Source: a virus. From it: a DNA stretch of 64,000 nt. A program made the position numbers and the translations under genes. Where the stretch lies: IMG/VR virus record IMGVR_UViG_3300031758_000006, one strand, 5' to 3'. The notes below the pieces were generated by a model. It was given only the letters and a program-made list of their open reading frames with translations, made no database searches and was not told where the DNA came from. Positions 31,594-55,901 of the stretch are shown here, piece by piece. The number at the start of each line of letters is the position of its first letter. The stretch's first letter is position 1.

Positions 31594-34320
31594 TTAAATC
31601 CAAGACATTTCAACCCCAGTCACATGAGCTGTCCATCTAATATTATCACTAGCAACCCCAGTCACTAAAATTTCTAATTGATCTAAAGTGTTATTTGCGG
31701 AAATAGAAACATTCCAAGCAGTATTATTTTCAACGTCGGTACCCACTGTTGAAACCGCCCCAATAAGTGTGGTGTTCCCACCAACATTTTTAACAGCAAC
31801 TTTTCTAATATAATGAGCTGAACAACCAACACCACATGGGAATGTTGCGTTTTCTTGAACAGCTGAAATTGATACCGTTAAAAATAAAGCTTTACCACTA
31901 GGTACTGTTAACCCTACTGTACTTGTTGGGTAATCTAAAAATAATTTAGTTGGTGTTGCTGTATTAGTTTTATTTGAAAGTAAAAACTCTACCTTTTGAT
32001 TATCTCCCGGATTTGAAAACGTACCTATCGATAAACTTTGTTGACCATATCTGGATGTTAAAGCACCACAACCATAAGCTGTACTATATTCTGATTGTAC
32101 TGTATTACATCTACCACCAATTATTGAACTATAAGTGGAATTTGAGGATATTCTATTTTGTATTCCGTTAATTATTGTACTATAACAAGTCCCCCCAGAT
32201 ATAAAATTAAGTTGACCATTACCGATCATATTAACACATCCACCACTAAAAATGTAATTTAATGCACCACCGACAATTATACTAGAATTTGACAAAATTG
32301 TATTACAAACACCACCATTAATTATACCATATATCGATGAACAACTAATTGTATTATGTATACCACCATTAATTGATGACCCCGTTGTTCCTGTAAATAC
32401 CGTATTTTTAGCCCCACTATTAATGTTTGAAAAACACGAGGATGATGCTACCGTGTTCCCACTACCCCCACCTATAAATCCATGATCACCATTCAAACAG
32501 TTTGATACCCCACCACCAATAACACTATCCGTGGACATTACTGTATTTGTTGATCCACCACCAATAACAGATCTGGATCCTCTAAGGTTATTAAGTAATC
32601 CACCTAAAACTGAAGAATGGTTACCAATGTTTTGATTACTTTGACCACCAACAATAACACTACAACCACCTAATGATTGATTACCTAAACCATTACCAAC
32701 AAATGAATATTGACCGCAAGATTGATTACAATACCCACCAACAATTGATGAATAACAATTATCTGTTATGTTATTACAACCACCACCAATAAATGAACAA
32801 CAAGAGTTTAATTTGGTTAAGTTCTTTTCCCCTCCGGAAATGACAGAACTACCACCACATGATGTATTACAAATACCACCACCAATCAAAGATTTTGTAC
32901 CTGTTGACCATATTGTGTTTTTACAACCACCATTAATTACTGAACAAAAAGAGTACGATGTATTACATTCTCCACCACCTATCGTATTTAATACACCTTC
33001 ACTGTAATTTAAAATACCACCAGATATTACACTCTTTGAAGTAGGACACATTATTTTATTTTGACATCCACCACCAATTACTGAACAATCACTAGTCCCC
33101 CAAATTGTGTTTAAACACCCACCAGCAATTGTACCATTAGTGGATAAGATGGTGTTGTCATTTCCACCACCAATAACAGCCCCTCCAGACGATACCCAAA
33201 CCACATTTGAATTACCTCCGTTTATGGAACTAACCGTTCCCTCAGATACATTAAAAATTCCACCGGTAATAACCGAACCAATACCATTTGATGTAATAAT
33301 GTTTCCACTACCACCACCAATATTACCACCGGTCTCGATTGTGTTATTATCACCACCACCGATTGTTGACAAAGTACCAATCGCAGTATTAGAACCACCG
33401 CCAGCTATGACTGAACATCTACCGTTTGATGTGTTTGATATTCCACCACCAATTACCGAAAAACAAACTGAAGCGGTATTACAATACCCACCACCGATTG
33501 TTGTGGAACAACCTACAGATGTGTTATAATACCCACCAGTCACGTTACTATATATAGTATAAGAGGTATTACCCTCACCACCAAGTACTGAAGAACAATC
33601 ACCAAAAGAATTAGAATTTACATTTATTCTTTGTGTGGAATTAATACCAGTACCAACCTCATGTAAAATGTCTATCCCAGCTATTGATGCCGTAGTTGTT
33701 TGTGTATTTAAATCTAATGTACCAGTTGTTATGTCATAAGTTCCACCAGTTACATAGTGATCTGTATACCCAGTCACAAATCCGGTTACAGTAAATGTAC
33801 CACCAGTACTGTTTGTAAATTCAACATCGCCAGTATTTAAATCGTAAGTACCTCCTGTCACAAAAGTATCACCAAGTAAAGGCAACAGACTTACAGTATC
33901 ACTAAACCCATCATTTCTAGTTATTGTCAAATCCATCGCTGGAGTTTGGAATGTTAGTCCAGTGAAATATGTGTCAGTAAATCCAGTTATGAGAAAATTA
34001 CTACCATCATTATTTGTTAATGTTAATTCTTCGGTAATGTCATTATATGACCCACCGACAACGTATTGGTATCCAGGTATAGTTATCGTACCACCGGTTG
34101 AGTTATTTAATTGTAGTAATCCTGAAGATGGGAAATATGTCCCACTTACAATATCCCCGCCAGAAGTAACCCCACTTAAAACATAAGGTAAAAACTGACT
34201 TAATGGTGTATGTTTTGTCGTACCACTAAATACATCATAGTTTACTATAGCTATTATGTCATTAGTTGTGTAGCCTGTGTTCCCAACGTAAGGTAACTGT
34301 GATATTCTTTTATCTGCCAT
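31594..34320 (-). CDS. tail-fibre/adhesin-like protein with Cys-rich S(V/T)IGGGxxN repeats
   Basis: MADKRISQL N-terminus, VTGGTY shaft modules, a long run of ~15-aa GG repeats and a beta-sandwich-like C-terminus. Confidence 0.7.
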   Translation of the reverse strand: MADKRISQLPYVGNTGYTTNDIIAIVNYDVFSGTTKHTPLSQFLPYVLSGVTSGGDIVSGTYFPSSGLLQLNNSTGGTITIPGYQYVVGGSYNDITEELTLTNNDGSNFLITGFTDTYFTGLTFQTPAMDLTITRNDGFSDTVSLLPLLGDTFVTGGTYDLNTGDVEFTNSTGGTFTVTGFVTGYTDHYVTGGTYDITTGTLDLNTQTTTASIAGIDILHEVGTGINSTQRINVNSNSFGDCSSVLGGEGNTSYTIYSNVTGGYYNTSVGCSTTIGGGYCNTASVCFSVIGGGISNTSNGRCSVIAGGGSNTAIGTLSTIGGGDNNTIETGGNIGGGSGNIITSNGIGSVITGGIFNVSEGTVSSINGGNSNVVWVSSGGAVIGGGNDNTILSTNGTIAGGCLNTIWGTSDCSVIGGGCQNKIMCPTSKSVISGGILNYSEGVLNTIGGGECNTSYSFCSVINGGCKNTIWSTGTKSLIGGGICNTSCGGSSVISGGEKNLTKLNSCCSFIGGGCNNITDNCYSSIVGGYCNQSCGQYSFVGNGLGNQSLGGCSVIVGGQSNQNIGNHSSVLGGLLNNLRGSRSVIGGGSTNTVMSTDSVIGGGVSNCLNGDHGFIGGGSGNTVASSSCFSNINSGAKNTVFTGTTGSSINGGIHNTISCSSIYGIINGGVCNTILSNSSIIVGGALNYIFSGGCVNMIGNGQLNFISGGTCYSTIINGIQNRISSNSTYSSIIGGRCNTVQSEYSTAYGCGALTSRYGQQSLSIGTFSNPGDNQKVEFLLSNKTNTATPTKLFLDYPTSTVGLTVPSGKALFLTVSISAVQENATFPCGVGCSAHYIRKVAVKNVGGNTTLIGAVSTVGTDVENNTAWNVSISANNTLDQLEILVTGVASDNIRWTAHVTGVEMSWI

Positions 34321-34356: not shown

Positions 34357-34974
34357 TTACTCCCCAATCCTAACCACCTCAAAATACGGCTGGTTAAAAA
34401 ATGTATTATCAAATACTGGGTACCCTTGATTACCTACACCACCACTAGCACCACCATGTAAACAAACGATCCCGATCCATTCGTTACCTAATGATGTATA
34501 TATTTTTGAACCGGATTTTGTTGACTCACCATTCCCGGTTGTACCAATGAAACCTTGATCTAAGTATTCAATCTTTGTACCTAGATCCCCACTACTTGAT
34601 GTTGTTGAGGTTATCAAGGCCAACCTCAAAAAGTCAGTTCCGTCAGTCATATCGTAACTAGAGTACCTAGCTTTAATTAAATATCTACCGGGTAATATTA
34701 GTTCTATTTTACTGCTGGTTGGATTAAAAACCGACGGAGAAGTGTTAATTACGGTATTATTATACGGGACTAAAAACTCAACACCATTGGTCGTATTAGA
34801 CAAACCAGAAGAACCATTAATGTTTATTTTACAATATGGGAACTGTAAATATTCGGTTATTGATGAAAATGGAGTGTGATAAGTTGTTCCGGTTAATTCG
34901 ATGGGGAATAGGGTATCCTCAGTTATATTAGTGAGTACTGGTAATTCACCGATTGTTTTTCCTGTTAGTGACAT
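34357..34974 (-). CDS. fibre-associated protein with C1q/TNF-like beta-sandwich
   Basis: KTIGELP N-terminal motif; FLVPYNNTVIN...FNP...PGRYLIKA pattern. Confidence 0.45.
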   Translation of the reverse strand: MSLTGKTIGELPVLTNITEDTLFPIELTGTTYHTPFSSITEYLQFPYCKININGSSGLSNTTNGVEFLVPYNNTVINTSPSVFNPTSSKIELILPGRYLIKARYSSYDMTDGTDFLRLALITSTTSSSGDLGTKIEYLDQGFIGTTGNGESTKSGSKIYTSLGNEWIGIVCLHGGASGGVGNQGYPVFDNTFFNQPYFEVVRIGE

Positions 34975-34986: not shown

Positions 34987-36216
34987 TTATATTGGGTTAT
35001 TATATTTTAAGTAATTGTTTAAACCCACATTTAGATACGTATCACTGCCAACTATAATTGGATCGATAATATAATATGTGGATGTTGGGGTTACAGTTGG
35101 GGTTGGTGTTATAGTATTTGTTGGTGTTACGGTAGGTGTTACAGTTGGTGTTACAGTTGGTGTTATAGTATTTGTTGGTGTTACGGTAGGTGTATTTGTT
35201 GGTGTTACGGTAGGTGTATTTGTTGGTGTTACAGTTGGTGTTATAGTATTTGTTGGTGTTACAGTTGGTGTTACAGTTGGTGTTATGGTATTTGTTGGTG
35301 TTACAGTTGGTGTATTTGTTGGTGTTACAGTTGGTGTTACAGTTGGTGTTACAGTTGGTGTATTTGTTGGCGTTACAGTTGGTGTATTTGTTGGCGTTAC
35401 AGTTGGTGTTACGGTAGGTGTATTTGTTGGTGTAGGTGATATTGGAAATATTTCCTCAATTTGCCAATTTAAATTTGACGGGTCCGTAGTCACATCTGTA
35501 AATTGATCCACACGAGTTAAATTAGAGTAATCCTCACCCAGGTTAATTACTGTAGAACCAAAATTACTACCCTGTGATATGGTAACACCGGTAGTTATTG
35601 TTATTGGTAAACCACTAAATACACCTAAATTGTGTGTAAAATTTAATGTGGTATCGATAATTACGGGTTTATTAGAAAATAGATTATACGTTATGTTTAC
35701 CGACCCGGGTAATACCGTAACCACCAATGTCAATTCCGTTGGTGTTTCGGGGTTTATAAAACAAAATTGAGTTGTTGTCGTTGTTATCACCGGGTTAGAC
35801 GGTACACAACAAGGAAATTCCGAAACATAACATGAGTCGTACATCAAATCGTCAGAGATAAAACTATCCTGAACTGTTATATATAATTTTTCCCTGATTG
35901 GTAATATTAAATTACCCTCATTTGTTTTTAATAAAAATTGTCCTTCATACCTACCAACACGATTTGTGTCTTTATTTGTGAACTGGTAATACACATAATA
36001 TTCTGGACTAGCGTTTGGGTCTAACATTATTTTATTTACAAACCCAGCTGGTCTAGTTACTAACTTTGGTATCCCATTTTCAGTATCAATCATAGAGAAG
36101 AAAATGGACGATTCCTCAATAAGATCCATCATCTTATTGTAATCACTACGACCATCCTTCACTACTTGTAATTTTAAAACCGGTAGTGTGGCATTTTTTT
36201 TAATGAAAAACTCCAT
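34987..36216 (-). CDS. BppU-like baseplate/fibre-anchoring domain + mucin-like PT tract
   Basis: [16 protein letters not shown]...[15 protein letters not shown]...LILP is BppU-N-like, followed by ~110 aa of [14 protein letters not shown] repeats. Confidence 0.65.
35094..35435. repeat. 12-bp-unit coding tandem repeat (PTVT/PTNT)
   Basis: Near-exact GTTGGTGTTACA / GTTGGTGTATTT units repeated more than 20 times. Confidence 0.95.
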
Positions 36217-36243: not shown

Positions 36244-37920
36244 TTAACATTCTTTTCTTAAATTTCCATCATAAAAATCAAATCGATTGTGTTCTGTTGG
36301 TGTTAACAACAACAATCCAGGTTTAATATTTCCCTTAATTGTTTCTTGATAGCAATTAGACATTAATGTCTGTTCGTAAGGATGTTTAAATTTTGTTTTT
36401 AAGTAACACTTATAATTACCCACTTTTGACATTAGAATAGGCCAATTTGATAGGTATATCTCCCCAGATACATATGGAATACCACCATACGATTTTATGT
36501 GTTTAAATTCTAAATCAGGTGAGTTTGGGTCCAGTCCAATTAAAGGCAGTGATCTGTTGTTAGGCCAATGACTTTCTCTAAAATGTTGTGGTACATTATA
36601 CCAAGACCATTGTTTATCGTGACTCCCAAAAAATTCGGTAAAGTTTAATTTTAAAAAATCAAACCCCTCTTTTTTTAGAATTAATAATGATTTTTTAAAT
36701 AAGTTTTTAACTTTTCTGTTAAACCCGTTTTTACATGTTTGATCAACACCATTATAAAAAAACATATCATCCTCAAAGAAATAGTAAAAGGATAGATCTT
36801 CTTGGTCATTAAAATGTTCAGATATAAACTGTCTACCACCAGTAATTCCGATGTTATCTTTTTTTATATGTTCAAAACCATACATTTCACATAACCTAAC
36901 ATATTCATCCGTAGTCGTTAGATCGGTCGAGTTATTAAGTAGAAATTTTTTAGTACTAAAAATAAAATCAGAGTCATACTCCAGTATGGACTCAATCAAG
37001 GTTTCGAATTGTTTTGGTGAATTAAAAGTGATGACATATAAACCCACAGAACCATTATCATTAGAATAGTCATTTGGTTCTTTTTTGTTCTTTGTTTTTA
37101 AAACTAAATTATTGTTTTTAACATCTTCAAAAAATTTATATAATAAACCATTACCCTCAATCTCGTAATAGTTTATCACATCCGGGTTATGGTATAACAA
37201 TATAGTAAATAAACTTTCCTCAGTACCCATGAACCCCTCACTCAATGTTTGAGTTAAAATATTATAATATAATGTATTTAGTTCTGTTATCAACTCCTTA
37301 TCCCCACCAAAAAATCCACCTCTAGCCACAATATTAGGGTTATCATTTGTCATCTCACACATTTTACTAAATGTAAATCCGTGTATTTCCGAGTTAGTTT
37401 CATATGGGAAACATATAAAATTAAATTTACTTAATTCACTATCTATTTTAGATAAAACTAAATCCTTTGTAAAATAACCTAAATGAATGGTATTTGTTAT
37501 ACCAGCGTCAATCCAAAATAATTTATCTGAATCAAATCTGTCTAAAATTTTTGCGTCATGTAATAAAAACATTTTAGACATTACTAATGGATTATACATC
37601 TCCAACTTAGCTTGTGTCGAATCAGATAACCATCCGACTTGATTATACCAATCGGGGTTGTTTCTAATCGTTTGGATTTTATCATAGTATTCATTGTTTT
37701 TAAACCAAGTAAGGTCTCTTAAAACAAATTGGGTGTTTTCCCTGGATCTATGTTTGAAAACAAACTCCATTAAATTTTCATCACCAAAAATTATAAGATT
37801 ACAATCAATGGTTAATAATTCCGTGAATTTTTCTAAATAATAATCAAATGACCTGGACCATCCTTCAGACATATCACCACGACCAATATCCCACAATCCA
37901 GTAACTAAAGTTGTTTTCAT
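36244..37920 (-). CDS. two-domain glycosyltransferase: HtrL/YibB(WlaTC)-like + GT-A
   Basis: TTLVTGLWDIGR...RSFDYYL, LFWIDAG, GGFFGG, GTEESLF. Second domain VGLYVITFN...DNIGITGGRQ...FFEDDM. Confidence 0.7.
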   Translation of the reverse strand: MKTTLVTGLWDIGRGDMSEGWSRSFDYYLEKFTELLTIDCNLIIFGDENLMEFVFKHRSRENTQFVLRDLTWFKNNEYYDKIQTIRNNPDWYNQVGWLSDSTQAKLEMYNPLVMSKMFLLHDAKILDRFDSDKLFWIDAGITNTIHLGYFTKDLVLSKIDSELSKFNFICFPYETNSEIHGFTFSKMCEMTNDNPNIVARGGFFGGDKELITELNTLYYNILTQTLSEGFMGTEESLFTILLYHNPDVINYYEIEGNGLLYKFFEDVKNNNLVLKTKNKKEPNDYSNDNGSVGLYVITFNSPKQFETLIESILEYDSDFIFSTKKFLLNNSTDLTTTDEYVRLCEMYGFEHIKKDNIGITGGRQFISEHFNDQEDLSFYYFFEDDMFFYNGVDQTCKNGFNRKVKNLFKKSLLILKKEGFDFLKLNFTEFFGSHDKQWSWYNVPQHFRESHWPNNRSLPLIGLDPNSPDLEFKHIKSYGGIPYVSGEIYLSNWPILMSKVGNYKCYLKTKFKHPYEQTLMSNCYQETIKGNIKPGLLLLTPTEHNRFDFYDGNLRKEC

Positions 37921-38765
37921 TAATCAAATATATTGTAAAAATATTTTATACTATCGTCAGTGTGTTCAGGTCTTCTATACCAGTCATCAAAAGAAATTAA
38001 ATTAATACCGTTATTATTGTTATAAAATAAACAAGATAGTATTTGTTCTTCCATATATAACTCCTTCTCACTATTGAGTAACTCAACCAGTAAGTTCTCA
38101 AATTGATCCCTAAAGTTTGAAAATAATTCAGGTTTCCCACCAAAAAATCCACCTATAACATGGTGATCCCTTTGGTAATCTATATAATACTTGGTTGGTA
38201 AGGTTTGTGACCAGAAAAATCTACCGGTATTATTCTTCCCAACCAAAATAAATTTTTCATCTGACATATCATTAAGTTTATTTAAAAATCCACTATTAAA
38301 TGATGTGAATGAGTAATACCTATCATAACCAGTACCGTAAGCTAAATTTTCGGGGAATAACCCACTATGTGATAGTCCAGCGTCAAACCAATATATTCTA
38401 TCATATTGGTTTTTATTCTCTAACATATCGTACCAAAAAAATTTATTATACTGAACTTCAAAACATCGGTCAATAGTCTTCATAAGTTCTAAATCTTTTA
38501 AAGATCTAATCTGATTAAAATATTTAGTGTCATGTAAATCAAAAACAATAAACTCAAGTTTTTCTGGTGAAACACCCCAGTTATTATAAAAATGATTTTT
38601 TAAATCATTCAACTCTTCTTGCGGTACAAAACAAATAAATTTATTAGCTTCTAAGTTTAAAATATTTTTTAATGAAGATCTGTAGTGATAATGTCTCGAC
38701 GGTCTACCACCAAATTCAGTTCCCCATAAATTTGAGTATATTGACGTGTAAATTAATGTTTTCAT
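37920..38765 (-). CDS. HtrL/YibB-like glycosyltransferase
   Basis: QYNKFFW, IYWFDAGL, IGGFFGG, YMEEQILS parallel the first domain of the adjacent gene. Confidence 0.65.
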   Translation of the reverse strand: MKTLIYTSIYSNLWGTEFGGRPSRHYHYRSSLKNILNLEANKFICFVPQEELNDLKNHFYNNWGVSPEKLEFIVFDLHDTKYFNQIRSLKDLELMKTIDRCFEVQYNKFFWYDMLENKNQYDRIYWFDAGLSHSGLFPENLAYGTGYDRYYSFTSFNSGFLNKLNDMSDEKFILVGKNNTGRFFWSQTLPTKYYIDYQRDHHVIGGFFGGKPELFSNFRDQFENLLVELLNSEKELYMEEQILSCLFYNNNNGINLISFDDWYRRPEHTDDSIKYFYNIFD

Positions 38766-38770
38766 ATTTA

Positions 38771-40018
38771 TTATAAATTTCCTGTTATACGATCACACCA
38801 ACCTTTTGATTTTGAGTATGGCCAAACAACCCAATAAGCCGGTTTTTCTTTAGTGTTAAATTGTCTCCATATTTTACAATATCCGTCTGGATCAGTCATC
38901 ATCATTTTTATCTCATCTGTACTAGCGTCTTGTCTATAGATTGTTTCATCTGTTTTATCGTGAAAAGCAACCACCCAATATTCGTAATCGTTTTCCGGTA
39001 CCTGTAAAAAGGATACATCAATACAGTGTTTAAAAATTGATGAAAAACTCTCAACCCAATCCTCTTCGGTTTCAAAGTCGTATGGATTTGGTGGGTATTT
39101 CTTATCTATGGTGTATTTTTGTACAGCTCTTTTAGAGAATAAAACACCGGAATATTTTTCATAATCCTTAATTGTTCTTTCGGTACCAAAACCATATTTA
39201 CCAAGGTCACCGTTATATACTTCACCATCCACACCTAATACCTCCCTGTTTTTTTTGTGTGAAGATTCATTTTTTAAGTACCAAACTTTATCATCGTCCC
39301 ATTGTTTTGTTCTACCTTTTCTGGTGTATTCGTGCCAAATAACAGTTTTATGGGGATGAAACAAATCATAACCGTGTGTATAAGCTCTAACAGCTATAGA
39401 AATTTCCTCACCATGAAAGTAATATTCCGGGTCGTGTTGTACCTCAACACTAAATTGACCAAGAGTAAAACAAAAATGAGCTGAGTAAAATCTAGATGTT
39501 ATCGGTTCGGTTAAATCTTTCCACCCAGGAATTGTCTCCGGTAAAAAGAAAACACAACCCTCTGGGGTGAACCGATCAAAAACCATCCTCCAAGGGTCAA
39601 CAACCCGACCATCTGGATCGTTTTCTGGATCGAAAGATGATACATATCCGGTTAATAGGGGTTTTTTATATCCCTTATCCTGTAGATCAGATAACATATC
39701 TATTAATGTTTGATCCCAGTCTTGATCAAATCTCATGTGTGAATCAATCTGTAGTGTATATTCCTCACCACCGTACAGTTGTTGTACTTGATTACGAGCC
39801 CAACAAACACCTTTAGATTCCTCGTGTGGAATATTTAGAACTCTAAATCTTTTATCTTCTTCATAAGATGAAAGATCATCAAATTTATCTTCTGGGTGGT
39901 ATTGACGAGCGATACCAAATACTAAATTTTTAGGATGTTTTGATTTACTAATAGCGTCTTCTATTGTCGGGACTAATTGTGGATCCCTATATGAAGCGAT
40001 TTGAATGAATATCTTCAT
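38771..40018 (-). CDS. GT60-like (Gnt1/polypeptide alpha-GlcNAc-transferase) glycosyltransferase
   Basis: IFIQIASYRDPQL, ESKGVCWAR, YTLQIDSHMRF..WD, SAHFCF, FHGEE...RAYTHGYDLFHP. Confidence 0.8.
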   Translation of the reverse strand: MKIFIQIASYRDPQLVPTIEDAISKSKHPKNLVFGIARQYHPEDKFDDLSSYEEDKRFRVLNIPHEESKGVCWARNQVQQLYGGEEYTLQIDSHMRFDQDWDQTLIDMLSDLQDKGYKKPLLTGYVSSFDPENDPDGRVVDPWRMVFDRFTPEGCVFFLPETIPGWKDLTEPITSRFYSAHFCFTLGQFSVEVQHDPEYYFHGEEISIAVRAYTHGYDLFHPHKTVIWHEYTRKGRTKQWDDDKVWYLKNESSHKKNREVLGVDGEVYNGDLGKYGFGTERTIKDYEKYSGVLFSKRAVQKYTIDKKYPPNPYDFETEEDWVESFSSIFKHCIDVSFLQVPENDYEYWVVAFHDKTDETIYRQDASTDEIKMMMTDPDGYCKIWRQFNTKEKPAYWVVWPYSKSKGWCDRITGNL

Positions 40019-46615: not shown

Positions 46616-47512
46616 CGACAAAGCTAATTCTATTTTTTCCCAGACCATATCTGGGGTTATTTTTAAATGACATTCATTTTCCCTACCGGTCCCCAAAAAT
46701 ACCGGACAATGTGTTTTAATGTTCATAAACATATTAAAACATCCATTACACACATTTGGGTTTAACACACGAAAACAATCAAATTCATTTTGTTTTTTTG
46801 TAAAGTTAGATATCATAACCACCGGTATGTCATACGCCCAAGCTAACCAAGATAAACCAGAGGACAACCCAATAAAAATCCTAGATTCGAGTATGTGGTT
46901 TAAGGACACCGTAATATCATCGAAACCGTTACAATTTGTCACACCTTCAAGATTTAGTGTATTCTCATATGATACATTTGTCACTTCATACCCAGATGAG
47001 GTCAATCTGTTAACAATTTCCTGCCACCCATTATCATAATCCCACCTAGCTATTTTCTTTAATGATTCCGGTGCGATTGAAATTTTATTATTTTTTTTGT
47101 TAATTTTATATGGGATAACCGGACATTTTCCGGGTTTAGTATCTTGTGGTAACATCATGGTATCTTTGGTAGCGTACATCATACCATTTAGGGTATGTTT
47201 TAAATTACCTTTATCATAACCAATGTCCAACAATCTATCAACCTCAATATAAACCGGATTATTAGCTTTTATAAATTCACACCTATCAACATCTTTAGAT
47301 TGGAATAAATGTGGAAAAAAGGTTGATATGTAAATCTTTTTGGGTTTGTGGTATTCAATAAACGGATCAATGAAAGATGAAAAACATATTGTATCACCCA
47401 AACAAAATGAGTCAAAATGAAGTAGTAACGTACGACCATTAAAATTTGTAATATTTGGATCTAACTGTATGTACTTTAATAATTCCTCTTCTTCGTAATG
47501 TCGTTTAACCAT
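46601..47512 (-). CDS. autotransporter O-heptosyltransferase (AAH/TibC, BAHT)-like protein glycosyltransferase
   Basis: SFCLGDTI (catalytic-Asp motif), LKKIARW...GWQEIV, FIGLSSGLSWLAWA...VVMISNFT, and a four-Cys motif CNGC...HC...EC. Confidence 0.75.
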   Translation of the reverse strand: MVKRHYEEEELLKYIQLDPNITNFNGRTLLLHFDSFCLGDTICFSSFIDPFIEYHKPKKIYISTFFPHLFQSKDVDRCEFIKANNPVYIEVDRLLDIGYDKGNLKHTLNGMMYATKDTMMLPQDTKPGKCPVIPYKINKKNNKISIAPESLKKIARWDYDNGWQEIVNRLTSSGYEVTNVSYENTLNLEGVTNCNGFDDITVSLNHILESRIFIGLSSGLSWLAWAYDIPVVMISNFTKKQNEFDCFRVLNPNVCNGCFNMFMNIKTHCPVFLGTGRENECHLKITPDMVWEKIELALSFTNK

Positions 47513-48248
47513 TTTTAAGTTTTAAAATTTTAGAATAATAATCAAACCAATATCTTTCTTGCCACAATGTACCTTCCTCAAGTGAGACTAACGGTTTATT
47601 TTGCCAAGGTTTTTTAGCTATAAAATGTAATATTTTAATATATTTTGGTAGACCTGTATTTATGAAAATTTGTTTAGAGTACGTCTTTAAGTAATTATAC
47701 TCGATTGGAATAGTACTAATTACGTCACTAAAGTACAAATTAATAATATCCTGATCAAAGTGTTCAGTAATACCATATATTAATGTTAGATTAATTAAAT
47801 CATTTGTTATTTTTTCTGACAAATATTTTTTGTCGATAACCATAACACCCGTATTATATTGGTCAATATATAATTCCCGGACACACCCGAACGAATGTGA
47901 ATAATCAATCAGGTAATCGATATTACCAAGAACAACAATATCTGAATCTAAAAATATTATTTTATCAACATCACTAATTGAAAATATCTCATACTTTGTG
48001 TAATCACCAAACCCAGTCTGGTCTGATTTTAATTCGTCAATATTACCGTACTTTGACTGGTCATAATTTTTTAATGAAATATTATTATGTATTTTCCTAG
48101 AGGTTATCAGATCATCCGAAGTTAAATCATTACTGATCACCATAAATGGTATATTTTCATCAACAACCCTGGGATTGTTTTCCACTAATGATTTTAACAT
48201 TACCTCAAAACCAATTAGATAGTCCTTATTACATACTGATACAAACAT
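47505..48248 (-). CDS. GT8-family glycosyltransferase
   Basis: TKYEIF, IIFLDSDIVV, YNTGVMVI, DQDIIN, IEYN, HFIAKKPW. Confidence 0.85.
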   Translation of the reverse strand: MFVSVCNKDYLIGFEVMLKSLVENNPRVVDENIPFMVISNDLTSDDLITSRKIHNNISLKNYDQSKYGNIDELKSDQTGFGDYTKYEIFSISDVDKIIFLDSDIVVLGNIDYLIDYSHSFGCVRELYIDQYNTGVMVIDKKYLSEKITNDLINLTLIYGITEHFDQDIINLYFSDVISTIPIEYNYLKTYSKQIFINTGLPKYIKILHFIAKKPWQNKPLVSLEEGTLWQERYWFDYYSKILKLKNG

Positions 48249-48291: not shown

Positions 48292-48320
48292 AAAAAACCC
48301 CCATTTAAAGTGGGGGTCTT
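48292..48320 (-). terminator. rho-independent terminator separating fibre gene from GT cassette
   Basis: ACCCCCAT/GTGGGGGT hairpin plus T6 on the minus strand. Confidence 0.75.
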
Positions 48321-48340
48321 CATAATTATTTTTTTTTATT

Positions 48341-50449
48341 TTAGAATGGTGCTGAGTCGTTAGCGTACCAGTCAGTACCATTACTAATAAATGTTGTTTT
48401 AGTATATACAGCTGTTGGTAAGTTTTGAGCTATACCAACCCCATTTATTTTAGCTCCTCCACTACCAACAACAAAAGCACTGTTAGTGTTATTAGTTCTA
48501 ATTAGAATAACCTCTTTACCATCTCTAGCTGTTGGTAGATAAATGGTACCACCAGGTCCTGAAGTGTTATAAAATACAATACTATCGTTATCCGTTAAAT
48601 TCGGATCCGCTAACGCGTCAACCATTGTTGTTTTATAATTTACTGGTCCAGTAAATTGTGTTTCACCAAGGTACACAGTGTTTGGGGTTGTTGCGGTCAA
48701 ACTACTTGTGTTAATTAATACTACATCATTAGTTAACACTAGATTACCACTACCCCCGACAGTATTTGATCCATCCCCAACGATTGTATTCCCTAGCCCA
48801 CCAAGTACATGAGATGTTTCACCAGTTATGTCGTTACTTGCACCACCAAAAACAGATGACCCAGCTCCAACTACACTATTCCTCGATCCACCCAAAATTG
48901 TTGATGTGTCCCCAGAAGTTGAATTAAATCTACCCCCACCGATAAATGAGTTATTGGAATATATTGTATTATCTTTACCTGCACCAACGGATGAGTAGTC
49001 ACCAAATACCACACTTTCACCACCAACTTTGGTAATTCCAGTTATTGGGATTGGTGTTGGTCCGTCGGGATTTAAAATTATATCCCCGGTTCTACCAGAA
49101 TATGTCCCACCTGTTATACAACAATCAGCGTCAGTGAAACCAGTGACAATTATATCTTGATTGTTATCATATCTTAAATTTAAAGTACCAGTGGTGTTAT
49201 CATATGACCCACTAGTAATGTAAGTTGTTTTTGGGAATTCAAAAACCCTAACAAACCCATCACCATCAACCCCAATAGGGTCAATACCCGATAATGGTAC
49301 TGGTATAGTTGTATATGTTACAGATGTTGGGTCACTATTGTTAAATAAATTTAATTGATCAACATATACTGTATTATCCGAAAAACCACTAATGTTACTA
49401 CCACCAAGAATCACAGAATTATTACCAACTAGGTAGGAATTATTTGACAAAACATGTGAAGTATCTCCAGATACAAAGTTACCGTATCCAACAGACGATG
49501 ACGTGGAACCTAAAACAGTGTTGTATATTCCACCACCAACTGTTGATCCAACACCTTCGACTGTATTAAATCTACCACCAAGTACGGATGAATATTCTAA
49601 AACAGTTTTATTGTCCATACCACCAGCGATTACCGAAGACCCACCCTCAATCATATTTAATGATCCACCACCAATGAATGATGATTCGGATTTAATTTCA
49701 TTTAAATACCCACCACCAATAACTGATAGATCAGAAGATATTGAGTTATTTATACCGGTGTTTATTGATGAATTACTTGATGTGATTATATTACAAATAC
49801 CATTATTAATAACTGATTGTTCTCCGGAAATTTGATTTCTAAATCCATTCCCGATTGACGAAAGTGATCCGTTAACAGTATTCGACACACCATTTAAAAT
49901 TGATCCGTTTTGTGAGTTTACGGTGTTACCCTGTCCATTCAGTATTACTGACGATGATTTTGAGATAACATTTGACGACCCACCACCTACTAAACTATGA
50001 TCACCAGTAACTATATTACCGATACCATTTGTTACCGTTGAATAGTTCGAATTTACTGTATTTGTTAAACCGTTAGAGATTGTCGAGTAGTTACCAAATA
50101 GGTTATTATTCAACCCATTGTTTATCACACTAGTCGAACCAGTTATAATATTATTAGATCCACCAATTATAACCGAGTAACTAGAACTATTTTCAGATAT
50201 TCTATTTGATTTACCACCAGAAATTACTGTAAAGTCGGACTGTGAAAAATTATCATAACCACCAGCTACCGAGTCATTACCAACCAATGTATTGCCATAA
50301 CCACCCAATACGGTTGATCTAACACCGTTTGATGTATTTTTACCACCTCCAGATATTGTTGAGTAAGAACCAAGACTAATATTACCTAATCTGTCTCTCA
50401 CTGTTGTGGTGCTCCCACCATTCACATCTGTTATAATTATTTCTGTCAT
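48341..50449 (-). CDS. fibre/adhesin-like protein with SxIxGGxxN repeats
   Basis: Two blocks of ~15-aa Ser/Gly/Asn repeats, two ITxGxY shaft modules and a C-terminal beta domain ending FISNGTDWY. Confidence 0.7.
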   Translation of the reverse strand: MTEIIITDVNGGSTTTVRDRLGNISLGSYSTISGGGKNTSNGVRSTVLGGYGNTLVGNDSVAGGYDNFSQSDFTVISGGKSNRISENSSSYSVIIGGSNNIITGSTSVINNGLNNNLFGNYSTISNGLTNTVNSNYSTVTNGIGNIVTGDHSLVGGGSSNVISKSSSVILNGQGNTVNSQNGSILNGVSNTVNGSLSSIGNGFRNQISGEQSVINNGICNIITSSNSSINTGINNSISSDLSVIGGGYLNEIKSESSFIGGGSLNMIEGGSSVIAGGMDNKTVLEYSSVLGGRFNTVEGVGSTVGGGIYNTVLGSTSSSVGYGNFVSGDTSHVLSNNSYLVGNNSVILGGSNISGFSDNTVYVDQLNLFNNSDPTSVTYTTIPVPLSGIDPIGVDGDGFVRVFEFPKTTYITSGSYDNTTGTLNLRYDNNQDIIVTGFTDADCCITGGTYSGRTGDIILNPDGPTPIPITGITKVGGESVVFGDYSSVGAGKDNTIYSNNSFIGGGRFNSTSGDTSTILGGSRNSVVGAGSSVFGGASNDITGETSHVLGGLGNTIVGDGSNTVGGSGNLVLTNDVVLINTSSLTATTPNTVYLGETQFTGPVNYKTTMVDALADPNLTDNDSIVFYNTSGPGGTIYLPTARDGKEVILIRTNNTNSAFVVGSGGAKINGVGIAQNLPTAVYTKTTFISNGTDWYANDSAPF

Positions 50450-50472: not shown

Positions 50473-51918
50473 TTATGGGGTACATGGATTTAATAATGAA
50501 GGATCATTAGTTAATCCTACTTGCCAGTACGTATCACCACTACAAACTACAGTTGGGTTAAAACTTTTACCACAAGCTGTTACAGTATGTGGGTTCGGAT
50601 CTATATGACACTTAGGTGTCCCGTCCCAAGCTTGAATATTTAATTGTGAAGCTATGTTAGTTATTTTACAACCAAACATATATGGCCAAGAAGCGTTACC
50701 AATTAAAGCTGGACCAAAACCAACTATAGGTCCAACAAATGGTGGATAATTGATTGGGTTTATCGTGTTATTAACATACCAAGTTGTATTTGGATTTAAT
50801 AGTGGTTGTTTATTTGGACTACCAGCCTGTATTAAACCAATTACTTTCCAAGTACCACCAAATTGAGCGAACATAGCTGAACCAGAATCACCTTTAAAAC
50901 CTGGAAAAGCACATAACTCACCAGTTGGTGAATATCTAGCAAAACTCATCAAATCTTGATATATAATCGGGGTTTGTAACCCCTGCATTGATTGGGTGTA
51001 TTCGTAAATCACACTCAGTAGATGTATTCGTAGCGAACAAACACCTTCTTTACCTCCGGAAGTTCTACCAGCACTTATAATCGAATCAGCTGGAGTTAAT
51101 GAATTTATTTCCAAGTTGGTAGCGAATGGTTGAGGAGCTGTTATTGAGGATAAACCCAACTGTCTCCAAGAAGCGTTCGGACCTGAAGTACTTATAGTTT
51201 GATTTCCTTGTGCGTCAAATTGATCGATACTGACAATTGCAGCATCTGAAATATTTATACCATCAACAGGAAAAACATTACTAAATACAGGAACATACCT
51301 AAGTACAATCCCAAATGACCTGTCAAAGTTGGTACCAACAAATGGATCCGATAACCCAGGTTGATAAGCGTTTATCGCGGAACCCACGCCACTTGGGTAA
51401 GTTACGTTTGAAATACCACCATTTAATTGTCTATCACCAGTATAGAATGGGTCGTTTATTACAACGTGGTTATTAGTTAAACCAACATAACAACCTGTTT
51501 CTCCATCCACAGCTATCAAACCTAATGTTCCAGAACCAGCTATATTTGAAGGACCTAAAGAAATACCACCTTGTAACGGCCTTAAATAGTTCCTATTTGC
51601 TGGTGGGGTAATCGTCCAGTTCCAACAAGTTGGACTTAGGTCCGGGTTTGGTCCGGCACAATAAAATGCGTATGGTTCCGCCTCTGAAAAAGCTACAACA
51701 TCTGTGGGGTAAGTAACTCCATCAACTGTCATTTCTTTTGGGAATACTTCACCACTAGATAAAGAACTCAAAGGTTTCTTTTCTTTAACAATTAACGTAA
51801 ATGATTTTTCATTTGTTAATTGACCATCTTTAATTTTAAATCCGAACCCAACACCAACTTTATCAATGTTTGATTTATATATAGACTTTAATTTTTCCTT
51901 AATTGAGTCTGTGACCAT
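50473..51918 (-). CDS. trypsin-like (S1, Nal1-type architecture) serine protease
   Basis: Triad LTNNHVV / SDAAIV / GDSGS. N-terminal GVGFGFK...KK.LSSL...YPTDV domain as in Nal1-like proteases. Confidence 0.75.
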   Translation of the reverse strand: MVTDSIKEKLKSIYKSNIDKVGVGFGFKIKDGQLTNEKSFTLIVKEKKPLSSLSSGEVFPKEMTVDGVTYPTDVVAFSEAEPYAFYCAGPNPDLSPTCWNWTITPPANRNYLRPLQGGISLGPSNIAGSGTLGLIAVDGETGCYVGLTNNHVVINDPFYTGDRQLNGGISNVTYPSGVGSAINAYQPGLSDPFVGTNFDRSFGIVLRYVPVFSNVFPVDGINISDAAIVSIDQFDAQGNQTISTSGPNASWRQLGLSSITAPQPFATNLEINSLTPADSIISAGRTSGGKEGVCSLRIHLLSVIYEYTQSMQGLQTPIIYQDLMSFARYSPTGELCAFPGFKGDSGSAMFAQFGGTWKVIGLIQAGSPNKQPLLNPNTTWYVNNTINPINYPPFVGPIVGFGPALIGNASWPYMFGCKITNIASQLNIQAWDGTPKCHIDPNPHTVTACGKSFNPTVVCSGDTYWQVGLTNDPSLLNPCTP

Positions 51919-51944: not shown

Positions 51945-53585
51945 TTATCCAACTCTTTGTGTTGAGAACCTAACATAATCATCAGGTGCTACAGTTGTGT
52001 AGTTTAATCCTGTTGTATTAAGTACTCTAACACATAATTGGTCACCAGCGTTTAGTAACACACCCCATTGTCCACCGTTAATATCAGCGTATTTTTGAAT
52101 GTTTGACGTGTAGAATGTACTTGAAGCGTAAACCTCACCAGTAACAACATCAACAATACCAGCGTAAATCATACCCTCAGCTAATGAATACCACCCATTA
52201 ACCGCGTCTGGACCAGTTAAATGAACATAAAAACTCATGTTCCATCTACCACTTTGTGGACATGTCCAAATACCAGTAGCGTTATCATATGACCCGATGT
52301 AATCATTATATTGTAATGTCGGTGTTTGTGTTACCGCAACCAATGAGTTTGATAAATCATTACCTAAACCAGAAGACACACTATTTACTGGATCTGGTGA
52401 ACCTTCCGATAAGAAAGCGTCAACCACAAAGTTAACACCTGGATTAGTTGATGGTACAACAAATCCGTTAGCGTCAACCGCTAATCCGTATATTGGTGAA
52501 GTGTTTGGAAAACTTCTAATGTTAAGTTTTGGTACGTAAACCGAATCATCAACAGTTACGTTAACGTTAGATCCACCCAAAGCTACACTTCGGTTAGCAC
52601 TAACACTTGAACTTGTAGCGATTATGAATGAATCATTACCTGTAATTTTATTTGATGAACTACCTAAGATTGCTGATCTTTGTCCAGTTATTGTATTACC
52701 AAATCCACCACCGATTGTTGATGAACAAGCTGTCGTTGTTATTGTGTTCCCACTACCACCACCAATCGAAGATATTTGACCAAGTGTTGTATTACGAACC
52801 CCACCACCAATTGCTGGTGAAGCAGCATTAGCTAAGTTAAAAGAACCACCACCAACGATTGAGTTTATTTGTAAAGCCGTGTTATTTGTTCCACCACCAA
52901 TTACTGTGTTAGCACCACTAGTGAAATTACACTGACCACCTAGAATTGTTGAGTAACTAAATATACCAAACGGGTCAATGGTGTTTCTTGCACCACCACC
53001 AATAACGTTTATATTTCCTTTTCCATCAACACTTGGTAGTATTGTGTTATTATCACCACCACCAATAACACTACTTATTGATTGTGTTAGGTTACAGTTA
53101 CCCCCAAGGATTACAGAGTTAATGGCAAAAGCCCTATTAAGTTGACCACCACCTATTGTCACATTTGATTCTCGTATAGAGTTACTTGAACCACCAGCAA
53201 TAGTGTTGTCAACACCAGTAATAATATTGTTACAGATACCACCACCAATGAAACCTTCAATACCACTGATATTGTTACACGCTCCACCACCAATAGTTGA
53301 TCTCTCACTGTTCACATTAATTACGTTTCTCCAACCACCAACAATTGTACTACAAGGTGCTGACCCAGAAGCTTTTGTTGTTGATATTCGGTTACACGCT
53401 CCACCACCGATAGTTGACCATACTGGTCCAGCGGTATTTTTACAACCACCACCGACGATAGTTTCAGTTAATTGTGACGTATTTAATTGACCACCAGCTA
53501 CGGTACTACAGCTTCCGTTCGATAGGTTAGTGTTCGAATCTCTTAGTGTTGACCCAGGTCCTATACCTTGAATTATAATTGCCAT
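51945..53585 (-). CDS. fibre/adhesin-like protein, GG repeats + C1q-like head
   Basis: S(T/V)IGGGxxN repeats followed by YDNATGIWTCPQSGRWNMS...LNAGDQL (C1q-like). Confidence 0.7.
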   Translation of the reverse strand: MAIIIQGIGPGSTLRDSNTNLSNGSCSTVAGGQLNTSQLTETIVGGGCKNTAGPVWSTIGGGACNRISTTKASGSAPCSTIVGGWRNVINVNSERSTIGGGACNNISGIEGFIGGGICNNIITGVDNTIAGGSSNSIRESNVTIGGGQLNRAFAINSVILGGNCNLTQSISSVIGGGDNNTILPSVDGKGNINVIGGGARNTIDPFGIFSYSTILGGQCNFTSGANTVIGGGTNNTALQINSIVGGGSFNLANAASPAIGGGVRNTTLGQISSIGGGSGNTITTTACSSTIGGGFGNTITGQRSAILGSSSNKITGNDSFIIATSSSVSANRSVALGGSNVNVTVDDSVYVPKLNIRSFPNTSPIYGLAVDANGFVVPSTNPGVNFVVDAFLSEGSPDPVNSVSSGLGNDLSNSLVAVTQTPTLQYNDYIGSYDNATGIWTCPQSGRWNMSFYVHLTGPDAVNGWYSLAEGMIYAGIVDVVTGEVYASSTFYTSNIQKYADINGGQWGVLLNAGDQLCVRVLNTTGLNYTTVAPDDYVRFSTQRVG

Positions 53586-53669: not shown

Positions 53670-55901
53670 TTATATAATTGTTGTGGTTGTTGTTGTGTAA
53701 TCGTTTATGGTATATGTTAAATCATTAGTTTCACAATATTTTGTATCACAATTTGGACAGTCTGGATCAAACATTTCAAATTTATTTTTTAATAAATTAA
53801 AATTATGTTTAACTTCCGACGAGTTTAATGGTTCAACATACATTCTAAATTGAGTTATCCCACCCTCAAAGTAACCACCAAAATTTTGTTCTAGTAAAAT
53901 GTTAGTTTTTAATTTTGAAAATGTTGTACCACTTAATATATTATTTGGAAAACATTCTGGATCCTGAATATAATTTGATGTTAATCCGGTACAGGAAGAG
54001 AATGTTAAGTTCTCATGTAATCCTTGTGTACCCCCACCCCAAGAGATATTAAAAGGAACACCAACTTGTTTTTCTTTATCGGTATGTAAAGCTCTAGGAA
54101 TTACTTCCTCAAAGTCCTCAATAGTGAAGAACCGTTTACCGTTCACATAGATCTTTAATCTACCCATTCGATATTTTACATCATCTAACCACTTTTTATT
54201 TAAATTAACAAGTTCTACAGTTTGTGGTGTTTTAATACCATTAGTAACTGGGGGTGAAATTAATTTAACAGTATCATTAGCTAATGAATCCAAATATTTA
54301 ACCTCACTAATATCCCCAAGACCACCAAAGTATTTTAGATCACAGAAATCTAAAAATGTATACCGACTCCACACGACATCAACTTGTAACCACTTCTCGA
54401 TATCTAAAAATCCAATATTACGTTTTTCACAATAATCATAAACCCCATTTGGTGAACAATAATTAACAACCGTATATCCTGTTGTAAATGTTAAACCTGT
54501 GACAGTAGTTCCAGTTGTTTCACAAGTTCCCGTTAATTTTAAAACCCTAACACAAATTTTTGGATTTTTGGGATCACCAGAAAATTTAATAGACATAGCG
54601 TTTGATAACGAATCCCACAATGGATCCTTTTCACACGTATCCTCAATTGATTTAATCCCCTCATTTGTTGAACAATCTGTACAATCAGTACATGTTTTAC
54701 ACGTCGTACAACTTGGTGTACAAACCGGTACTTGGTATTCACAATTAGGGGTTGGACTAGGTGTGGGTGTTGGTGTGGGTGTTGGGTATTTCGTGGTAAA
54801 ACATTTGTGTGTTCTACATTCCCACCCACAAGTTTCACATGGGTCTTCACCACAACTACAACCACAAGTTAATCTTTTTTCTTTATCCCCACCACAAAGA
54901 TCACATCCATAATTTAAATGTGGATCATGTTTTCCATCTTTAGATCTTGGGGGGTAAACAAATATACATCTACTGTTTGTAATATTTTCTAAAACATAAT
55001 CAGGTGTGATTCCTGTTGTAAATACCGCTTCGACCGAACAACAAGCACAAGTTTGTAGACAATCAGCTAGTGGTGTTGTTACACGAGTATACCCGGTTAA
55101 ACATTTTGGGGACCCGTCAGCGTAATGATAAAATTTATTTTCAGCTCTGGTACCAAAATAAAAAAATGTATTTTTATTGTTTGGGTATAAAATATTTAAG
55201 GTTGTCTCACCAGATGATACCGGATACTCATCACAGAATCTAGGTCTTAACAACATCTCAACCGACCAACCCTTACTCATACGTTCTGGTAATATGTCAT
55301 AGTCATAACCAAAAAGTTTATAAAACCCTTGATAAAATCCACCATACAATTCATGGTAATATCCATAATTTGGGTGGTTTTTACTTACTATCTCATACAA
55401 TGTGTTTTGTGGTCTACCCGAAAAAATATCATATTGTTTTGTATGTCCGGTAACCTGAAACATTTTCATTCTTCGATCGTAAAATAATCTATTAAATTTA
55501 AATGGATCAACATATAAACCATTCGTGTAATTTAAACTAATTCCCGTCATCACATCAACTAAACCATTGTCAATACCAGTCAACCCAATATCACATGAGG
55601 TTGATGATGAATAGTTACAAAAATTTATGTTATCTGGATTATAAAAGTTTTGAGATACAAATACATTATTATAATTGTAATTTTTCCAAATAAGATTTGG
55701 TTGTGTTGTTGTTAAAAAATTATTTGTGTCAAAATATATAGGTAATTTATTTCCATATGTTTCAGCTATTAAGTAAGGTGAAAATAAAACTTCTTCATCG
55801 TAATCACGTTCATCAGATGTTAATGACATATCCATACTGTCAGATATAAGATTTATCTTATATTTCTGATAAACATATTGATTAATATTCTGTTGAGCCA
55901 T
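53670..55901 (-). CDS. Cys-rich structural-type protein with LamG-like C-terminus
   Basis: Likely start MAQQN at 55901. CxxC cluster and PT linker, then LKIYVNGK...FEGGITQFRMYVEPL..EVKHNF. Confidence 0.55.
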   Translation of the reverse strand: MAQQNINQYVYQKYKINLISDSMDMSLTSDERDYDEEVLFSPYLIAETYGNKLPIYFDTNNFLTTTQPNLIWKNYNYNNVFVSQNFYNPDNINFCNYSSSTSCDIGLTGIDNGLVDVMTGISLNYTNGLYVDPFKFNRLFYDRRMKMFQVTGHTKQYDIFSGRPQNTLYEIVSKNHPNYGYYHELYGGFYQGFYKLFGYDYDILPERMSKGWSVEMLLRPRFCDEYPVSSGETTLNILYPNNKNTFFYFGTRAENKFYHYADGSPKCLTGYTRVTTPLADCLQTCACCSVEAVFTTGITPDYVLENITNSRCIFVYPPRSKDGKHDPHLNYGCDLCGGDKEKRLTCGCSCGEDPCETCGWECRTHKCFTTKYPTPTPTPTPSPTPNCEYQVPVCTPSCTTCKTCTDCTDCSTNEGIKSIEDTCEKDPLWDSLSNAMSIKFSGDPKNPKICVRVLKLTGTCETTGTTVTGLTFTTGYTVVNYCSPNGVYDYCEKRNIGFLDIEKWLQVDVVWSRYTFLDFCDLKYFGGLGDISEVKYLDSLANDTVKLISPPVTNGIKTPQTVELVNLNKKWLDDVKYRMGRLKIYVNGKRFFTIEDFEEVIPRALHTDKEKQVGVPFNISWGGGTQGLHENLTFSSCTGLTSNYIQDPECFPNNILSGTTFSKLKTNILLEQNFGGYFEGGITQFRMYVEPLNSSEVKHNFNLLKNKFEMFDPDCPNCDTKYCETNDLTYTINDYTTTTTTII

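Follow-up and report, generated by a model that had tools for sequence, protein, structure and literature searches.

Why should a bacteriophage keep genes for glycosyltransferases (GTs) in the midst of its tail-fibre genes? The question is raised by a stretch of 64,000 nucleotides from IMG/VR virus record IMGVR_UViG_3300031758_000006 (hereafter the window, which reads as the reverse complement of a 78,158-bp viral contig), in which two GT cassettes, at 36244-40018 and 45697-48248 and both on the minus strand, are interspersed with fibre genes. Here, we propose from homology and gene order that the phage sugar-coats its own tail-fibre and baseplate proteins by means of two GT modules, a reading to which we give a probability of roughly 0.6. 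The first module would be centred on a GT60-family enzyme and proteins with Pro/Thr tracts, and the second on a truncated Aah/TibC-type (BAHT) enzyme and beta-roll fibres. Phage virions are usually assumed to be unglycosylated, mycobacteriophages being the main documented exception.

The window, which comes from a lake phage, has a GC content of about 33%. Its gene products include gp32, a baseplate protein of the T4 type, a long tail sheath, a DNA polymerase of family B and an SNF2 helicase; the CheckV completeness of 27% implies a genome near 290 kb. The best identity of the sheath among GenBank phages is only about 30% and this distance, taken with the gp32, baseplate, sheath and polymerase genes, points to an uncultured jumbo myovirus related to T4 at a distance. 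Every gene from 28549 to 55922 lies on the minus strand in tight packing. The original prediction had counted six GT genes with seven GT domains in the two cassettes, which profile, structure and neighbour evidence bear out as a fair count, two of the seven domains (the HtrL-like protein at 37920-38765 and the GT9-like protein at 45697-46581) having the weaker evidence. It had also placed the cassettes between fibre, spike and lectin genes with Pro/Thr tracts or Ser-GG repeats, and tract and repeat counts agree. Characterised GT60 members are polypeptide alpha-GlcNAc transferases on mucin-like Thr or Skp1 hydroxyproline (PMC8724618), and characterised BAHTs heptosylate repeat-rich adhesins (PMC4358343); the premise that both families glycosylate protein is thereby correct for their characterised members.

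The GT60 module and its phage relatives

The first cassette holds three genes:

38771-40018, minus strand: GT60-family soluble glycosyltransferase, 415 amino acids (PF11397), proposed initiator on Thr of Pro/Thr tracts
37920-38765, minus strand: HtrL-like paralogue, 281 amino acids, with a GGFFGG..EE block common with the HtrL domain of its neighbour
36244-37920, minus strand: bifunctional tandem GT-A enzyme, 558 amino acids (HtrL_YibB and a second GT-A domain), proposed glycan extender

The GT60 protein matches PF11397 (GlcNAc, GT60) at 2.3e-68 and 231.7 bits (cut-off 21) over positions 2-44 and 97-349 of the 352-position profile. Its DxH motif, D92-S93-H94, is invariant in 17 phage homologues and is presumably the metal-binding site, as in GT27/GT60 enzymes. 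Its candidate activity is the transfer of GlcNAc from UDP-GlcNAc to Thr or hydroxyproline of a polypeptide, with indirect support from the Pro/Thr-tract proteins encoded beside it in phages and bacteria. In the tandem GT-A enzyme, residues 2-256 match HtrL_YibB (PF09612) at 2.3e-20 and 73.7 bits (threshold 24.1), while the NCBIfam equivalog cut-off is not reached, and an AlphaFold model (27 homologues, pLDDT 88) has two GT-A domains. Its best Foldseek matches are all proteins with two GT-A domains: LH3, K4CP, Mimivirus R699, LARGE1 and heparosan synthase 2. LH3 is a collagen glycosyltransferase and K4CP a chondroitin polymerase. The HtrL-like paralogue has no Pfam match and stays below the PF09612 threshold; its assignment follows from a local similarity of 51 residues (2e-6), including the GGFFGG..EE block, to the HtrL domain encoded by the next gene. 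Homologues are XacN1 ORF332 (2e-19) and a RAS14 gene, and many relatives do without it.

Relatives of the GT60 protein in IMG/VR number 140, at 63-86% identity, and 80 of their loci were taken for gene order. The order is near-universal: GT60, an optional HtrL-like gene, the tandem GT-A gene, a gene of the PT409 type (see below) and then DNA polymerase, GT60 and tandem GT-A being adjacent in nearly all 80. Among 50,697 phage records in GenBank, GT60 was found only in XacN1, Xoo-sp13, CM1 and RAS14, and the same four carry the tandem GT-A. Identities between window and XacN1 are 48% for GT60, 26% for the HtrL-like protein and 40% for the tandem GT-A, and at the nucleotide level cassette 1 had no match among GenBank phages. 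In XacN1 and RAS14 the module is convergent to a baseplate-wedge block and to a protein of 3,100-3,300 amino acids with Pro/Thr tracts near its C-terminus.

In virions of XacN1 no fewer than two bands take the Schiff stain, for which its authors suggested phage-encoded glycosylation, naming only two GTs (PMC5852040). The genome, in which GT60 is ORF334, carries at least two further GTs, the tandem GT-A ORF330 and the HtrL-like ORF332, which are homologous to enzymes of the window. The Schiff-positive bands, known by staining alone, may be read as an experimental hint for the GT60 module. A carbamoyltransferase of 765 amino acids lies between GT60 and the HtrL-like gene in XacN1 (loci L086/L087) and RAS14 (L105), which hints at carbamoylated glycans in these phages.

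Candidate acceptors with Pro/Thr tracts

Three proteins of the window carry Pro/Thr tracts:

34987-36216, minus strand: PT409, with a BppU-N-like immunoglobulin-like domain (residues 1-138), a middle domain and a PTVT/PTNT tract of 135 residues (253-387); candidate acceptor by composition and structure model
44691-45647, minus strand: PT318, with a Pro/Thr tract of 150 residues (65-214) flanked by two small domains; candidate acceptor by composition
53670-55922, minus strand: p750, a Cys-rich protein of 750 amino acids with a short Pro/Thr tract (36 residues, 369-404); conserved first gene of the block, from its sequence and relatives

The tract of PT409 has 60 Thr and 31 Pro, that of PT318 54 Thr and 42 Pro. 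Residues 1-138 of PT409 are conserved in all relatives, and the remainder may be wholly absent or exceed 1,000 residues in length; a constant N-terminal domain with a variable rest is typical of fibre genes. This domain had no match in a PDB profile search, and Foldseek against PDB returned only generic immunoglobulin-like matches, those to phage baseplate proteins being weak. Its model is an immunoglobulin-like sandwich, whose BFVD matches, at TM about 0.5, include proteins with a BppU domain as well as proteins of the minor tail, tail fibre and baseplate.

A motif, TATTTAT, lies 4-45 nt upstream of the gene starts at 34320, 36216, 41719, 45647, 53585, 22287, 16348 and 14442, which accounts for 8 of its 19 minus-strand copies. 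The genes so preceded encode PT409, PT318, three fibres, the sheath and two large structural proteins, and TATTTAT may be a late-promoter element; a sigma-70 promoter scan did no better than on shuffled sequence. The BppU-N-like domain, as modelled, and the upstream motif common to the sheath gene support the view that the Pro/Thr proteins are probably virion parts.

At least one tract open reading frame (ORF) is present near GT60 in 41 of 46 full-length phage loci. In a complete relative of 304 kb, 59% of 21-kb windows are without one.

The GT60 module in bacterial genomes

Bacterial genomes are the most independent test of the link between GT60 and tracts. GT60 and the tandem GT-A are adjacent in 30 bacterial loci, from Bacteroidota, Gemmatimonadota, Verrucomicrobia, Acidobacteria and Proteobacteria. 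The Bacteroidota GT60 proteins are 56-67% identical to that of the window and several are encoded on contigs of 0.6-1.3 Mb with host-like GC; among the bacterial loci, some short low-GC contigs of metagenome-assembled genomes may be mis-binned phage. In 9 of the 18 loci with usable flanks, a protein whose Pro/Thr/Ser tract has 45 residues or more is encoded no further than 1 kb from the pair, a count that includes L122, a locus of Jiulongibacter sediminis JN14-9 in which the tract gene stands between two GT60-like genes. Tract density is 0.176 per kb near the pair and 0.008 per kb beyond 3 kb, about a 20-fold difference, and the cases with a tract neighbour represent about four independent lineages. 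In Burkholderiales the GT60-like gene is shorter and has no tandem GT-A partner. Where GT60 stands alone with usable flanks, these included, a tract neighbour was found in only 3 of 39 loci, and none of those 3 is from Burkholderiales.

In L122, L149, L143, L152, L115 and L109 the proteins with long Pro/Thr/Ser tracts have 200-580 amino acids and are encoded 0.05-2.5 kb from GT60. By eye, several of the bacterial tract proteins start with a twin-arginine (Tat-like) signal, and the triad of GT60, tandem GT-A and tract protein suggests a possible order of cytoplasmic glycosylation and then Tat export. The closest non-viral GT60/tandem GT-A loci (L107-L120, L122 and L149, with the identities given above) are from Bacteroidota, namely Saprospiraceae, Lewinellaceae and Cytophagales; the homologies would fit a Bacteroidota host and gene exchange with it. 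At somewhat under even odds, in our estimate, a cytoplasmic pathway of mucin-type O-glycosylation, with a GT60 initiator and a bifunctional tandem GT-A extender and dedicated to proteins with Pro/Thr tracts, is common to jumbo phages and to bacteria of several phyla. The bacterial targets would be small proteins with Tat-like signals; in the phages the pathway, joined by a TibC-type enzyme that lacks the barrel and would act on beta-roll fibres, would cover the tail fibres with a glycan brush. The bacterial triad would then indicate an undescribed prokaryotic route of protein glycosylation.

The BAHT trio and the beta-roll fibres

The second cassette is a trio of GT genes, and three fibre genes of the window encode beta-roll repeats:

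47505-48248, minus strand: GT8 glycosyltransferase (PF01501, 1.1e-21, 78 bits, threshold 24.3)
46601-47512, minus strand: truncated Aah/TibC-type (BAHT) glycosyltransferase, 303 amino acids (TIGR04414 and TibC)
45697-46581, minus strand: GT9-like (GT-B) protein, 294 amino acids (from Atlas neighbours)
31594-34320, minus strand: beta-roll fibre, 908 amino acids, 39 repeats by motif count; candidate BAHT acceptor
48341-50449, minus strand: beta-roll fibre, 702 amino acids, 20 repeats by motif count, directly upstream of the trio (PF21300 beta-roll below threshold)
51945-53585, minus strand: beta-roll fibre, 546 amino acids, 25 repeats by motif count

The BAHT protein matches TIGR04414 at 5.8e-33 and 114.3 bits over positions 79-372 of 374, under the 200-bit equivalog cut-off, and TibC in PDB at 2e-16. 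It was aligned with an E. coli plasmid enzyme annotated as autotransporter O-heptosyltransferase and read against the TibC structure paper (PMC4358343). The Asp of the LGD motif, equivalent to the catalytic base Asp-110 of TibC (PMC4358343), has its match in the E. coli enzyme and does not vary among phage orthologues; the GLSSGLSWLAW block is conserved, the equivalent of Trp-305 included, and all four iron-finger Cys align with TibC and the E. coli enzyme. The thumb region is 8 residues shorter. The GT9-like protein had no Pfam (even at E = 5 for GT9, PF01075), NCBIfam or PDB sequence match, and a pairwise comparison with BAHT detected no similarity; in its nearest Atlas clusters 36-45% of members have PF01075, at TM 0.82, and the assignment is a lead only.

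All three fibres have a repeat of the Ser-Gly-Gly-Asn type with a period of 14-15 residues, and none has a YadA anchor or another Pfam match above threshold. The repeat region of 31594-34320, the only one of the three searched against PDB, matches the head of the Moraxella adhesin UspA1 (3pr7) at 2.7e-14, and its N-terminus has, by eye, a motif like a phage-fibre anchor and not a signal peptide. BAHT has no autotransporter for a neighbour; instead, a fibre of this UspA1-head-like repeat type is encoded one gene upstream. Between the 702-residue fibre gene and GT8 lies a strong terminator-like hairpin (48293-48321, minus strand; 11 pairs and then a T-run).

In related loci the trio, where it occurs, is complete, and in every case a beta-roll fibre gene precedes it. 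PT318 follows the trio wherever the trio is present, and is found also without it. In 49 related contigs, searched for BAHT and the repeat domain and by motif counts, both were found in 13, neither in 32, BAHT only in one and beta-roll only in three. The BAHT-only contig is a fragment with a near-twin whose beta-roll fibres are 75 kb away; two of the beta-roll-only contigs are fragments and the third has a distant BAHT paralogue. All BAHT-positive contigs belong, on the tree of GT60, to a single clade of 22, which also holds negatives.

The distant BAHT paralogues are domains of enzymes of 911-1,497 amino acids that also have GT1 and FkbM methyltransferase domains. Such enzymes are found at L023:3457-6375, L029:2858-5722, L012:3238-7731 and L073:7300-10035, one of them with a TibC N-terminal domain. 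They adjoin collagen-like Gly-Thr-Ser fibres in three lineages (L011/L012, L029 and L073), a fibre type that is absent from the window and from the complete relative G001. Two BAHT subfamilies, each beside a different Ser/Thr-rich repeat fibre, are what a pairing of enzyme and substrate would predict.

A model of virion glycosylation and the points against it

From the observed family assignments, gene order, conservation and co-occurrence the following course may be put forward. Soluble cytoplasmic GTs would decorate tail-fibre and baseplate proteins before or during assembly. In the first module GT60 would add the first sugar, an alpha-linked HexNAc by analogy with the protist GT60 enzymes, to Thr of the Pro/Thr tracts in PT409, PT318, p750 and similar linkers, and the tandem GT-A would extend the glycan, helped by the HtrL-like paralogue where present. 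In the second, the truncated Aah/TibC-type enzyme would modify Ser/Thr in the beta-roll repeats of the three fibres, and the GT9-like and GT8 proteins would add further sugars. For the HtrL-like, GT8 and GT9-like proteins we infer the role of extenders. The glycans could stiffen or protect linkers, serve adhesion or shield the fibres.

Several observations weigh against this model. In five divergent GT60 loci there is no tract ORF within 10 kb, and of 50 distinct PT409 homologues about 20 amount to a short, tract-free domain of 120-160 residues, with GT60 retained. Breaks of the assembly within repeats may account for some of them. Since GT60 is kept beside tract-free homologues, the adjacent gene is not its sole or obligatory acceptor. 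A strict one-to-one pairing of GT60 and the adjacent PT409 gene was rejected on the same count. As to the co-variation of BAHT with beta-roll fibres, the two occur together or are absent together in 45 contigs, but a phylogenetically corrected test leaves two well-supported contrasts, four at most, in the same direction and not significant. Moreover, TATTTAT stands directly upstream of neither the GT genes nor the DNA polymerase gene, and the GT genes may depend on read-through from upstream or on other promoters.

Further objections concern BAHT itself. The N-terminal beta-barrel (residues 1-97 of TibC) is missing, the phage proteins beginning some 65 residues further along than the E. coli enzyme, and deletion of 80 or 95 N-terminal residues abolished the activity of TibC (PMC4358343). 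Of the residues that bind ADP-heptose in TibC, Trp-305 is kept, but the columns of Thr-226, Lys-230 and Arg-286 have Leu, Ala and Ser; an invariant Lys is found three residues upstream of the Lys-230 column. BimC, a member of the family, was reported to be without transferase activity (PMC6439308). The missing barrel, the altered sugar-binding residues, the score below cut-off and the lack of SIS_2 and NTP_transferase genes (see below) are therefore our grounds for the term BAHT-like, with the sugar left unspecified: 46601-47512 is taken for a BAHT-like protein glycosyltransferase for which heptose is doubtful. A designation as heptosyltransferase was rejected, three of the four ADP-heptose-binding residues being unmatched in the alignment.

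The central claim of the original prediction, that the phage glycosylates its own fibres, is thus supported in part: by the protein-acting families, by the linkage of GT60 and tracts in several lineages, by BAHT tracking beta-roll fibres and by the XacN1 bands, and is held back by the failed one-to-one pairing and the few independent contrasts.

Alternative explanations

The main alternative is that the GTs remodel surface glycans of the host (lipopolysaccharide core, O-antigen or capsule), so as to block superinfection or the sticking of progeny to debris, and that their position among fibre genes is incidental. The families GT8, GT9 and HtrL/YibB are classically those of the lipopolysaccharide core, which speaks for this explanation and is one more point against virion glycosylation. 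A survey of jumbo phages reads phage GT clusters as modifying capsule or O-antigen (PMC7824862), more GT2/GT4-like genes stand among early-type genes at 58778-64000, and complete relatives make GDP-fucose. However, the characterised GT60 and BAHT members reviewed all act on protein, and the cassette ORFs scanned include no flippase, polymerase, lipid-carrier or membrane-anchored component. The GT60/tandem GT-A pair adjoins Pro/Thr-tract proteins even in bacterial chromosomes, and the BAHT trio tracks one fibre type. We consider remodelling of the host surface unlikely.

The cassettes could also be mobile accessory genes gathered in a recombination-prone fibre region, with other targets (host proteins, capsid or small molecules), the tracts being ordinary linkers. 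The content of the island does vary among relatives, in sulfation genes, multi-domain enzymes and the presence or absence of the trio; GT60 persists where PT409 homologues are often tract-free; and a complete relative has a second Pro/Thr-tract cluster in a fibre region about 70 kb from GT60. Such hitch-hiking may hold for the extender enzymes. As an account of both cassettes it appears improbable, given that the pair adjoins small Pro/Thr/Ser-tract proteins in non-phage chromosomes across phyla and that the two BAHT subfamilies each lie beside a different repetitive Ser/Thr-rich fibre type.

Glycosylation of the phage DNA as in T4, in evasion of restriction, would suit a distantly T4-like phage (gp32, baseplate, sheath) with nucleotide-metabolism genes nearby but is very improbable, since the T4 DNA glucosyltransferases belong to GT families other than those assigned here, no hydroxymethylase was found among the ORFs scanned against Pfam (several ORFs of the window being outside that scan), and GT60 and BAHT point to protein acceptors.

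Relation to known glycosylation systems

The proposed system has counterparts among known ones. Virus-encoded virion glycosylation is known from chloroviruses and Mimivirus. PBCV-1 and Mimivirus resemble the present system in having soluble virus-encoded GTs, multi-domain ones included, and relatives of the window phage encode GDP-mannose dehydratase and fucose synthase; R699 of Mimivirus is moreover a structural match of the tandem GT-A enzyme. They are viruses of eukaryotes, with capsid or fibril targets and different linkages. In the mycobacteriophages Che8, Corndog and Myrna (Freeman et al. 2023, as cited in PMC12363180), phage-encoded GTs modify structural proteins of the phage itself, with the capsid as the reported target, and the glycans guard virions against the binding of antibodies. 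In the window the candidate targets are instead fibres and linkers, and host phylum and phage type differ.

With the protist GT60 enzymes (mucin-type initiation in Dictyostelium and T. cruzi; Skp1 Gnt1) the window enzyme shares the Pfam family, a near full-length match and the DxH motif. It is soluble, as is the cytosolic Skp1 enzyme, and its candidate acceptors are Thr-rich and mucin-like, as are the T. cruzi mucins (PMC3769586; PMC8724618). Unlike them, it is of phage and bacterial distribution, carries about 120 additional conserved residues at its C-terminus and is paired with a tandem GT-A instead of the protist extension enzymes. With Aah/AIDA-I and TibC/TibA the BAHT-like protein shares a homologous catalytic core and a gene position beside a repeat-rich, Ser-rich adhesin-like protein. 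It differs in the absent barrel, the shorter thumb and the three altered ADP-heptose residues, in neighbours that are phage fibres like the head of a trimeric adhesin and that show, by eye, neither a signal peptide nor a membrane anchor, and in that the phage genomes searched gave no match for a gene of the ADP-heptose pathway (SIS_2/GmhA).

XacN1, Xoo-sp13, CM1 and RAS14 have the same module of GT60, HtrL-like and tandem GT-A, placed in XacN1 and RAS14 by a giant baseplate-linked protein with Pro/Thr tracts, and XacN1 has the Schiff-positive virion bands. Phages of the XacN1 type differ in the carbamoyltransferase within the module, the lack of the BAHT trio, a high GC and hosts among the Xanthomonadaceae (Xanthomonas/Stenotrophomonas). 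A literature search returned no report of GT60 or BAHT enzymes (TibC/heptosyltransferase) in phages, and the window adds a BAHT that stands alone and is paired with beta-roll fibres, a connection to the glycoprotein bands of XacN1 and the bacterial triad.

If the proposal is true, lake jumbo phages of a large clade, whose hosts are probably Bacteroidota, coat their receptor-binding fibres with sugars by means of enzyme families so far known from protists and from the adhesins of pathogens. It would give a new view of host range, particle stability and recognition by antibodies and grazers for such phages, as well as compact soluble pairs of enzyme and substrate for GT60, HtrL/YibB and BAHT chemistry. 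The idea is directly testable because XacN1 is cultured and carries the GT60 module.

Sugar supply, tailoring and other genes of the island

That the window holds no genes of nucleotide-sugar synthesis was borne out for the three families searched, Epimerase, SIS_2 and NTP_transferase, none of which has a match in its contig, and SIS_2 (GmhA-type) and NTP_transferase were absent from the five phage genomes of the clade that were searched. Genomes of the clade have additional GT2 and GT1 genes. In G001, adjacent genes at 156.9-159.8 kb (L095:16945-19762) encode GDP-mannose 4,6-dehydratase (Gmd), GDP-L-fucose synthase (Fcl) and an FkbM-type methyltransferase, a nucleotide-sugar pathway that the contig of the window lacks. 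At L075:6586-9966, between a beta-roll fibre and GT60, the place of the trio is taken by genes for a GT9-like protein, a NoeE-like sulfotransferase, an APS kinase and a nucleotidyltransferase, possibly genes of glycan sulfation. The island is a variable glycan-tailoring region among fibre genes.

The remaining fibre and neighbouring genes of the island are:

34357-34974, minus strand: small fibre-like protein, 205 amino acids, with an N-terminal anchor-like motif; kept after PT409 in several relatives
40253-41719, minus strand: fibre or spike protein, 488 amino acids, with an N-terminal anchor-like motif and a GGTY..TGF module shared with other fibres (by eye)
42030-42773, minus strand: Laminin_G_3 / concanavalin-like lectin-fold protein (PF13385, 2.3e-15)
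42775-44682, minus strand: fibre protein, 635 amino acids, with repeated GGTY..TGF modules; homologues in related loci
50473-51918, minus strand: protease-like protein among fibre genes (phrog_20754 protease, 1.4e-13)

By eye, the N-terminus of 34357-34974 resembles those of 31594-34320 and 40253-41719. The 488-residue protein had no family match in Pfam or PHROGs, and of ten fibre, Pro/Thr and neighbouring proteins just two had a match in PHROGs, namely PT409, to a family without assigned function, and the protease-like protein. An ORF of 59 codons (40062-40239, minus strand) takes up most of the 234 bp that separate the 488-residue fibre gene from GT60.

Beyond the island, the plus strand at 58778-64000 has a methyltransferase gene and several GT genes: one weakly GT1/GT4-like, one GT2/GT92-like and one for a two-domain GT2, which the contig end cuts. 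The GT genes of this region stand among early-type genes (dUTPase, exonuclease). Another GT2 match lies at the left edge of the window, at 2-532.

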